DNA of 64,000 nt from Haliotis rufescens (GCF_023055435.1 NW_025963902.1:2539815-2603814); one strand, 5' to 3'. Counted from the stretch's first letter, positions 46,040-48,170 are shown. Numbers and translations are program-made. The notes: generated by a model not told the origin, from the sequence alone.

Positions 46040-48090
46040 CTGATAATGACATGGCTACTCTACCACATACACTGATAATGACATGGCTACTCTACCACAT
46101 ACACTGATAATGACATAGCTACTCTACCACATACATTGATAATGACATGGCTACTCTACCACATACACTGATAATGACATATCTACTCTACCACATACAC
46201 TGATAATGACATGGCTACTCTACCACAAACATTGATAATGACATAGCTACTCTACCACAAACATTGATAATGACATGGCTACTCTACCACATACATTGAT
46301 AATGACATGGCTACTCTACCACATACATTGATAATGACATGGCTACTCTACCACATACATTGATAATGAAATGGCTACTCTACCACATACATTGATAATG
46401 ACATGGCTACTCTACCACATACACTGATAATGACATGGCTACTCTACCACATACACTGATAATGACATATCTACTCTACCACATACACTGATAATGACAT
46501 GGCTACTCTACCACAAACATTGATAATGACATAGCTACTCTACCACAAACATTGATAATGAAATGGCTACTCTACCACATACATTGATAATGACATGGCT
46601 ACTCTACCACATACATTGATAATGACATAGCTACTCTACCACATACATTGATAATGACATGGCTACTCTACCACATACATTGATAATGAAATGGCTACTC
46701 TACCACATACATTGATAATGACATGGCTACTCTACCACATACACTGATAATGACATGGCTACTCTACCACATACACTGATAATGACATGGCTGCTCTACC
46801 ACATACACTGATAATGAAATGGCTACTCTACCACATACATTGATAATGACATGGCTACTCTACCACATACACTGATAATGACATGGCTACTCTACCACAA
46901 ACACTGATAATGACATGGCTGCTCTACCACATACACTGATAATGAAATGGCTACTCTACCACATACACTGATAATGACATGGCTACTCTACCACATACAT
47001 TGATAATGACATGGCTGCTCTACCACATACACTGATAATGACATAGCTACTCTACCACATACACTGATAATGACATGGCTACTCTACCACATACATTGAT
47101 AATGACATGGCTACTCTACCACATACATTGATAATGACATGGCTACTCTACCACATACATTGATAATGACATGGCTACTCTACCACATACATTGATAATG
47201 ACATGGCTACTCTACCACTTCACTGATAATGACATGGCTACTCTACCACATACATTGATAATGACATGGCTGCTCTACCACATACACTGATAATGACATG
47301 GCTACTCTACCACATACATTGATAATGACATGGCTACTCTACCACATACATTGATAATGACATGGCTACTCTACCACATACATTGATAATGACATGGCTA
47401 CTCTACCACATACATTGATAATGACATGGCTGCTCTACCACAAACATTGATAATGACATAGCTACTCTACCACATACATTGATAATGACATGGCTACTCT
47501 ACCACATACATTGATAATGACATGGCTACTCTACCACATACATTGATAATGACATGGCTACTCTACCACATACATTGATAATGACATGGCTACTCTACCA
47601 CATACACTGATAATGACATGGCTACTCTACCACATACATTGATAATGACATGGCTGCTCTACCACATACACTGATAATGACATGGCTACTCTACCACATA
47701 CATTGATAATGACATGGCTACTCTACCACATACATTGATAATGACATGGCTACTCTACCACATACATTGATAATGACATGGCTACTCTACCACATACATT
47801 GATAATGACATGGCTGCTCTACCACAAACATTGATAATGACATAGCTACTCTACCACATACATTGATAATGACATGGATACTCTACCACATACATTGATA
47901 ATGACATGGCTACTCTACCACATACACTGATAATGACATGGCTACTCTACCACATATATTGATAATGACATGGCTACTCTACCATATACATTGATAATGA
48001 CATAGCTACTCTACCACATACACTGATAATGACATGGCTACTCTACCACATACACTGATAATGAAATGGCTACTCTACCACATACATTTC
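46040..48090. repeat. Satellite with a 32-bp unit 'ctgataatgacatggctactctaccacataca' and about 64 homogeneous copies. It lies in the ASL intron and starts at the donor of exon 48086-48170.
   Basis: The 32-bp period was measured from 46041, 46073 and 46105. Unit variants include cattgat/cactgat and atggctac/atagctac/aaatggctac/atggctgc. Confidence 0.95.
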
Positions 48091-48170
48091 CAAAAAGTCT
48101 TCCCGACTTTCCACGGATTAGTTCCAAACTGTCCGAGTTTTTCTTCTGGGGCATCAGGCTGCTCCCGGTG
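48086..48170 (-). CDS. ASL: ASL exon: (S)[28 protein letters not shown]
   Basis: Human: [29 protein letters not shown]. Acceptor 'catcgacag|caccggg', donor 'ggaaat|gtatgtgg'. 85 nt. The track ORF 48075-48272 on this strand is in a different frame and is an artefact. Confidence 0.9.

Follow-up and report, generated by a model that had tools for sequence, protein, structure and literature searches.

How does a splice donor come to be repeated dozens of times within its own intron, and how can the one donor that joins the exons correctly be told from its copies? This question is raised by a 64,000-nt stretch of the genome of the abalone Haliotis rufescens (GCF_023055435.1 NW_025963902.1:2539815-2603814), hereafter the window, in which a 32-bp minisatellite begins at the 5′ splice site of intron 11 of the gene encoding argininosuccinate lyase (ASL). 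Positions are counted from the first letter of the window, and all ASL features described lie on the minus strand. An original prediction, made from the sequence alone, had reported a 32-bp satellite of 64 copies that starts at the GTATGT donor of an ASL exon and repeats this motif in every unit, and had left open whether it was a dispersed satellite that landed there or one born in place. We consider it highly probable that the array is a locally born exon–intron-boundary minisatellite of the kind known from intron 7 of human F7 and from the 'mirages' of amphioxus. The locus provides an extreme natural test of 5′ splice site choice, in which sequence cannot discriminate between the candidates.

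A donor-bearing array in ASL intron 11

The host gene was identified by tblastn with human ASL, which served as a probe only and, when run against the window, revealed a chain of minus-strand ASL exons between ~58.6 kb and 39.0 kb. The best protein database matches of the joined exon translations were argininosuccinate lyase-like proteins of H. rufescens, H. cracherodii, H. rubra and H. asinina, and the H. rufescens ASL protein (P0001) is encoded exactly, 471/471 residues, by 16 exons in the window, with exactly one GT–AG solution reproducing the protein at every ASL intron. Exon 11 (48086-48170), which was matched by the human probe and covers the lyase signature region, encodes residues 285-313 of P0001 without mismatch and ends in ...GGAAAT, so that the boundary reads ...GGAAAT|GTATGTGG (the bar marks the junction). 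The authentic 5′ splice site, AAT|GTATGT (48080-48088, phase 0), is kept as aat|GTATGTGG in 4/4 Haliotis species. Intron 11 (45576-48085; 2510 nt, phase 0) runs from the donor AAT|GTATGTGG to the acceptor GTTGCAG|TGT, and its unique 3′ part (45576-46038, 463 nt) starts with GTCATTGTGCCTGCAG and ends with ...GTCATGTTGCAG at the acceptor. Exon 12 (CSGFMMSLKGIPSTYNKDLQ; 45516-45575) was placed by its match to P0001 and by the unique GT–AG solution. On the other side of exon 11, intron 10 holds a perfect (CAT)9 microsatellite at 48206-48232, ~35 nt upstream of the exon 11 acceptor, which on the minus strand reads as (ATG)n, or poly-Asp.

Tandem Repeats Finder (TRF) reported a single array at 46037-48088 with a period of 32, 64.2 copies, 95% matches, no indels and a score of 3677. 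When the minus strand was cut unit by unit, beginning with the first base of the intron (48085) and proceeding to 46039, exactly 64 head-to-tail units (46039-48085) resulted, with the consensus GTATGTGGTAGAGTAGCCATGTCATTATCA[A/G]T; unit 1 corresponds to nucleotides +1 to +32 of intron 11. The consensus unit GTATGTGGTAGAGTAGCCATGTCATTATCAAT occurs unchanged in 23 units, and 10 more differ from it solely by a terminal AGT for AAT. Because exon 11 ends at 48086, as fixed by the exact protein match and the unique GT–AG solution, the first base of intron 11 is also the first base of unit 1; both the 64-copy array and its start at the donor were therefore predicted correctly. Repeat similarity, as delimited by TRF, reaches 3 nt (AAT) into exon 11. 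Unit 27 (47254-47284), which on the minus strand directly precedes unit 28, came out 31 nt long, so that the sole 1-nt deletion of the array lies at the boundary between units 27 and 28 (~47253/47254). Two units have no pseudo-donor, and unit 28 (TGAAGTGG...; 47222-47253), in which the GT has been lost, is one of them.

The donor is reiterated with high fidelity along the array. A GT stands at the position of the authentic donor in 61/63 downstream units; the authentic 9-mer AAT|GTATGT is present in 32 of these 63 units and AGT|GTATGT in 21, and identity to the authentic site extends over 23 nt (-3 to +20) in 27. With dozens of identical copies, local sequence cannot tell the true donor from the others; the upstream exon alone can. 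The prediction of a donor motif in every unit thus held for the GT, apart from the two units that lack it, but not for a preceding CAG, since only 24/64 units end in CAGT and 40/64 end in CAAT. The proposed register, cag|tgtatgtgg, was likewise off by one base: the GT in use is preceded by CAGT or CAAT (AAT|GT or AGT|GT).

Every downstream copy, if spliced, would lead to a premature stop codon. The 32-nt unit is not a multiple of 3, and in-frame reading of the repeat meets a TAG in the second unit. Use of a downstream donor would add 32n nt to the mRNA, one nt fewer beyond unit 27. We built all 63 hypothetical cryptic-donor mRNAs, and each stops 15 codons past the end of exon 11, compared with 471 residues for the normal product; productive alternative use is therefore impossible, and the array, being intronic, has no possible coding contribution. 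The RefSeq-derived protein P0001 corresponds to the gene model that uses the first donor. Because any downstream donor leads to a stop, the first donor is presumably used exclusively, as judged from annotation and homology, and transcripts spliced at later copies, whose stop lies far upstream of the last junction, are probably removed by nonsense-mediated decay (NMD). Folding of the exon end together with four units gave z = -1.9 and a centroid that was empty over the repeats, and hence no convincing structure that would hide the pseudo-donors; an Rfam scan of 44000-51000 found no family.

Local origin and turnover

To place the array in time, we compared orthologous ASL loci of H. cracherodii (L001, GCA_022045235.1), H. 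rubra (L002) and H. asinina (L003), with exons mapped as for the window. Intron 11 measures 2510 nt in the window, with 64 units at its start, and 1833 nt in H. cracherodii, with 31 units at its start; in H. rubra (1492 nt) and H. asinina (1171 nt) no array is present at the intron start. Both of the latter species have in its place a single-copy sequence, GTATGTGGAAGAGT.G.TATG, that is homologous to the unit. The H. rubra intron starts GTATGTGGAAAAGTAGTTATGCTATG / GTATGTGGAAAAGTAGTTATGCTATGG... and the H. asinina intron GTATGTGGAAGAGTGGTTATGCCATGTCA / GTATGTGGAAGAGTGGTTATGCCATGTCAAAT..., each aligning with the unit over ~26 nt. When the arrays of the window and H. cracherodii were collapsed to one unit and aligned with these outgroups, the first ~26 intron positions were conserved in 4/4 species. 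The unit is therefore the ancestral start of intron 11, and the array was born in place. The distal flank beyond the array continues the ancestral intron sequence, and the H. cracherodii array has the same boundaries and the same distal flank, GTCATTGTGCCTGCAG, as that of the window. Because the array is common to these two species, whose single-copy non-coding DNA is about 92-94% identical, and is missing in both outgroups, it is older than their split and younger than the split from H. rubra and H. asinina.

Searches for the unit agree with a birth at this site. A 24-nt unit core gave 64 matches in the window (at most 3 mismatches), all within the array, and none in shuffled sequence; outside the array the 64-kb window holds 0 matches, and among the fetched loci the core matched solely the orthologous array of H. 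cracherodii. An exact scan of a metagenome collection for the 24-nt core found no match, in a collection where abalone DNA is not expected, and no terminal repeats or target-site duplication were seen at the array. On the choice between a dispersed and a locally born repeat that the original prediction left open, the single-copy intron starts of the outgroups and the lack of any other match in the window point to local birth, and a genome-wide family of the 32-mer appears very unlikely in view of the outgroup homology.

The array is still turning over. The mean pairwise difference between units, per 32 nt, is 1.6 in the window, 1.9 in H. cracherodii and 1.9 between the two. Each species carries private variants spread over several units (A3T in seven units, T14C in seven and G21T in six in the window; G5T in five, T20C in four and A31T in five in H. 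cracherodii), and in the window whole blocks have been duplicated, units 8-14 matching units 20-26 and units 49-51 matching units 58-60. These private recurrent variants and block duplications, together with 64 versus 31 units, document ongoing turnover. Unit 1 of H. cracherodii keeps the ancestral A at intron position +9 (GGAAGAG, as in both outgroups) and all its other units have T; in the window T is found at +9 in 64/64 units, the functional first unit included, and homogenisation or unequal exchange has therefore overwritten the very copy that is spliced. Of the suggestion that the array is 'young or actively homogenised', the second half stands, given the copy numbers, the private variants, the block duplications and the T at +9, and the first does not, as the array is common to H. 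cracherodii.

Junction duplications, class and explanation

The intron 11 array is not the only one in ASL that touches a splice junction. In intron 10, a 61-bp array of 20.5 copies (49008-50256) has a unit made of the last 29 nt of exon 10 (50228-50342) and the first 32 nt of the intron, and so repeats the peptide SFVTLSDAY together with the donor CAG|GTCAGT; it has 23.1 copies in H. cracherodii, and H. rubra and H. asinina are without it. In intron 4, a 73-bp array of 6.5 copies (55885-56359, TRF rows to 56486) combines the last 52 nt of the intron with the first 21 nt of exon 5 (55751-55905) and ends 21 nt inside that exon. Upstream of the authentic exon 5 acceptor there are thereby 6 additional copies of the acceptor TTTCAG|GAG (TGAATGTTTCAG|GAG); H. 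cracherodii has a 74-bp version of this array with 14.5 copies. The 5′ end of intron 12 holds an array of ~1.25 kb with periods of 11, 22 and 44 bp (44265-45518; 57.7 copies of the 22-bp period), whose edge, relative to the exon 12 donor, varied from -3 to +13 with the TRF run. Its unit, ACATTTACAGG, derives from intron positions ~3-13, and it contains 53 CAGGT and 51 CAGGA motifs; in H. cracherodii it spans only ~250 bp, with 23.5 copies of the 11-bp period. The sequences of these sister arrays are unrelated to the 32-bp unit.

A smaller and more recent event lies across the exon 12 acceptor, where a 63-nt complex duplication (45568-45674) consists of two 44-nt copies and a 22-nt filler. The copies (45568-45611 and 45631-45674) are 98% identical, each containing ...TTGCAG followed by 8 nt from the start of exon 12, and the filler (45612-45633) was copied from 45771-45792, 159 nt upstream. 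The duplication is found in the window only, H. cracherodii being without it, and with its templated filler it looks like a product of template switching. Splicing to the upstream duplicated AG would add 63 nt, which read TGT TCG GGA TGA and thus run into a stop. H. rubra has duplications of its own: a 46-bp sequence present twice (11066-11155 of L002, 100% identical), starting 17 nt inside exon 2, and a two-copy duplication of the exon 5 acceptor, ~40 nt long, at roughly 16350-16434. The protein of the H. rubra locus is flagged 'LOW QUALITY' and its intron 2 lacks a clean GT–AG pair, so that the exon 2 duplication is possibly an assembly error. A 33-bp sequence present twice at 20970-21036 of L002 stops 3 nt short of the acceptor of intron 8.

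We applied the same pipeline to the ASL genes of amphioxus (L005), as a positive control, of the scallop Pecten maximus (L006) and of the limpet Patella caerulea (L004). Amphioxus ASL showed four junction-spanning arrays, two at donors and two at acceptors (1930-2116, 3300-3504, 4415-4605 and 6655-6976), among them a 24-bp array that starts at the donor AAAG|GTCAGT... and, across the acceptor of the exon that is orthologous to Haliotis exon 12, a 31-bp array with 10.3 copies. In Pecten and in Patella, ASL contains intronic arrays, none of them in contact with a junction. Because the pipeline recovered the amphioxus phenomenon and was negative in Pecten and Patella, junction contact is not a trivial by-product of intronic repeats. 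Patella ASL has only two introns, compared with 15 in Haliotis and Pecten, which suggests massive intron loss or a retro-copy origin.

Comparable arrays are known from a few other genes. In the variable number tandem repeat of human F7 intron 7 (IVS7), a 37-bp monomer made of 4 bp of exon and 33 bp of intron is present in 5-9 copies (Borensztajn et al. 2006, PMC1557585); the most upstream donor alone is used, and the 4-8 pseudo-sites are silent and become functional only if the first is destroyed, which the authors explained by 5′-to-3′ scanning (PMC1557585). The abalone array resembles it in that the first monomer sits at the exon–intron boundary, the authentic donor is followed by identical pseudo-donors and the copy number varies; even the make-up of the unit is similar, with at most 3 bp of exon and 29-32 bp of intron. 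It differs in scale (64 units and 61 GT-bearing pseudo-sites versus 5-9 copies), in host (a mollusc rather than a mammal) and in its unrelated unit, and the choice of splice site was shown experimentally in F7, whereas the abalone array is known here from sequence. According to the summary in PMC1557585, intron 2 of IFI6 (6-16) carries 25 pseudo-sites, of which the first two are also used, and intron 13 of CBS carries 15-20 donor repeats; in both genes, the two pseudo-sites that lie closest to the exon are constitutively active, and LMNB2 and PDGF are listed there as further similar cases. These genes share with ASL a donor reiterated many times but differ in that near pseudo-sites are used, whereas every abalone pseudo-site would give a premature stop.

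A second group of parallels is formed by the mirages of amphioxus, tandem duplications of exon–intron boundaries that affect donors and acceptors alike, with units of 10-160 bp and at times several per gene (PMC3087553). Examples are the globins BflGb6/9 (Ebner et al. 2010, PMC3087553), PGBD5 (PMC3902484) and Adh3 (Canestro et al. 2002, as cited in PMC3087553). Mirages apparently leave normal splicing undisturbed (PMC3087553, PMC3902484), show length instability, concerted evolution and less homogenised edge units, and have been discussed as possibly specific to cephalochordates (PMC3087553). Abalone ASL resembles them in the duplication of boundaries at donors and acceptors, in the presence of several arrays in one gene, in length instability and in concerted evolution. 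Classical mirages hold a clear piece of exon, unlike the 32-bp array with at most 3 exonic nt, although the sister arrays of introns 4 and 10 are mirage-like in this respect, with 21 and 29 exonic nt; the globin mirages have 2-6 units and the abalone array 64, in a gastropod host. The 32-bp array shows several of the features of a boundary minisatellite: a tandem unit, coincidence with a junction, local derivation, and copy-number instability with concerted evolution. A literature search found no abalone or mollusc reports of boundary-spanning repeats, and the array is a very large addition to the class formed by F7 IVS7, IFI6, CBS and the amphioxus mirages, apparently the first to be described from a mollusc.

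Two further candidates were rejected. An array of recursive splice sites, (Y)nCAG|GTRAGT, does not fit unit junctions that read ...ATCAGT|GTATGT or ...ATCAAT|GTATGT, with a T between CAG and GT, no polypyrimidine tract and 40/64 units without CAG. Rolling-circle reverse transcription of a mini-lariat does not fit sister arrays that hold 21-29 exonic nt, nor a unit end without a branch-site-like motif.

We suggest that the array arose in an ancestor shared by H. rufescens and H. cracherodii, after the lineages of H. rubra and H. asinina had split off, when ~32 nt at the start of ASL intron 11, with the donor GTATGT among them, were duplicated in tandem. The two breakpoints, AAT|GTATG and AGT|GTCAT, share TGT, and the duplication probably came about by slippage or template switching at this microhomology. 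Unequal exchange or replication slippage then presumably expanded the array to 64 units here and 31 in H. cracherodii, and homogenisation reached the functional first unit. The spliceosome would take the most upstream donor, either because it is defined together with exon 11 or because it is reached first, as in F7, and occasional use of a later copy would yield NMD substrates. Because the array has no coding role and transcripts from downstream copies are non-productive, it is best seen as a by-product that is tolerated rather than selected, presumably one of repeated duplication at or next to splice junctions in this lineage.

Several observations weigh against this reading or limit its reach. 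The overlap of the 32-bp array with the exon is only 3 nt (AAT), and unit position 31 is hypervariable (A, G, T or C in H. cracherodii), which would suit an original duplication crossing the boundary as well as one starting exactly at +1. According to PMC1557585, human IFI6 and CBS also use the second and third copies, which bears on the exclusive use of the first donor. Our search for the unit covered only the window and six fetched ASL loci, ~0.17 Mb. Tandem repeats make up 31.6% of the window (28 arrays), so arrays are common there generally, and the other arrays of the ASL gene lie deep in introns. Contact with a junction was observed for 4/7 arrays of the gene, compared with 0.46 expected under random placement along the gene (P ~5e-4), but the tolerance of this test was chosen after seeing the data, it covers one gene in one lineage, and the window and H. 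cracherodii are not independent in it because they share the same ancestral events.

Against this background, a dispersed satellite or transposon-borne array that inserted by chance just after the donor, with a merely coincidental resemblance of its unit to the donor, would suit a window so rich in tandem arrays and a search of this extent. We regard it as highly improbable, since the unit is homologous to the single-copy orthologous intron start of two outgroup species, its core is confined to this array and its H. cracherodii orthologue among the loci fetched, the metagenome scan was empty (albeit in a collection unlikely to contain abalone DNA), and the array lacks terminal repeats and a target-site duplication and is followed by the continued ancestral intron. 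Long homogeneous arrays are error-prone in assembly, the copy number of 64 may be inexact, and a mis-assembled mirage was noted in the amphioxus draft genome by Ebner et al. (PMC3087553); nevertheless, that the array is an artefact, a short repeat over-expanded or mis-joined, is extremely improbable, given that the independent H. cracherodii assembly has the same array, junction and distal flank with variants of its own, and that internal variants and block duplications are typical of real arrays. The array might instead be kept by selection as a regulator, serving as a platform for the U1 small nuclear ribonucleoprotein, as a means of tunable NMD-targeted splicing or as protection from premature cleavage. 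Retention of GT in 61/63 units and of the exact 9-mer in 32, and persistence in two species ~7% diverged in non-coding DNA, would be compatible with such a role, yet GT retention is expected from homogenisation alone, with ~1.6 differences per 32 nt at all positions. The two-fold difference in copy number between the species, the lack of the array in H. rubra and H. asinina with otherwise highly similar ASL proteins, the absence of significant RNA structure (z -1.9) or an Rfam family, and sister arrays unrelated in sequence likewise make selection for regulation very improbable.

It is less easy to set aside an array that was born locally but came to lie at the junction by chance, in a repeat-prone genome and without any junction-directed mutational bias. 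The repeat content of the region, the ASL arrays deep in introns, further arrays away from junctions in the neighbouring KCTD region and the post hoc nature of the permutation test all speak for it. We think it unlikely, in view of the 4/7 arrays at junctions, the separate window-specific duplication across the exon 12 acceptor, the duplications that arose independently in H. rubra across the exon 2 donor and the exon 5 acceptor, and the contrast between Pecten and Patella, with arrays off junctions, and amphioxus, in which the bias is documented and ASL has four. A locally born boundary minisatellite thus remains our preferred explanation, and junction-proximal DNA seems prone to duplication in this lineage. 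That exon–intron junctions are true hot spots for tandem duplication by microhomology or template switching in abalone, as in amphioxus, is a tentative and rather doubtful extension. If it were true, a mutational process coupled to transcription or splicing, such as the stalling of forks where the polymerase or the spliceosome pauses, would seed mirages in distant phyla. New cryptic splice sites and the sliding or gain of introns could result from such a process, and the 63-nt acceptor duplication, with its templated filler of 22 nt, would be a recent product of it.

The locus bears on the first-come, or 5′-to-3′ scanning, model drawn from F7, where it was tested with only 4-8 pseudo-sites. 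It also extends boundary-spanning minisatellites to several donors and acceptors of a mollusc gene, a pattern so far discussed as an amphioxus peculiarity. The four-species comparison gives dates for the arrays and includes one that still has only two copies and bears the signature of a template switch, and the question of how such arrays are born is therefore testable genome-wide in Haliotis. Arrays of this kind can mislead gene predictors and are likely to be hypervariable markers.

Neighbouring sequence

The rest of the window contains a KCTD-type neighbour gene on the minus strand, with exon 1 at ~30354-30539 and, in exon 2, an open reading frame (ORF) with BTB_2 and KCTD_C domains (Pfam) at 28490-29167. 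This ORF runs into a 52-bp array of 10.4 copies (27973-28518), the first unit of which supplies its last ~10 codons and stop; the Pfam KCTD_C match ends 17 residues before that stop. The 52-bp array belongs to a cluster of tandem arrays at 19302-28518 with periods of 17/34/68, 29, 48/32/80, 16 and 52. A 162/163-bp satellite with a 326-bp higher-order period and ~48 copies occupies 5-7934 and runs off the start of the window. Between tandem arrays, two adjacent ORFs of 119 and 92 amino acids (21853-22607, plus strand) resemble, by eye only, pieces of a transposase of the Tc1/mariner type, the N-terminus being helix-turn-helix and the C-terminal part DDE-like.

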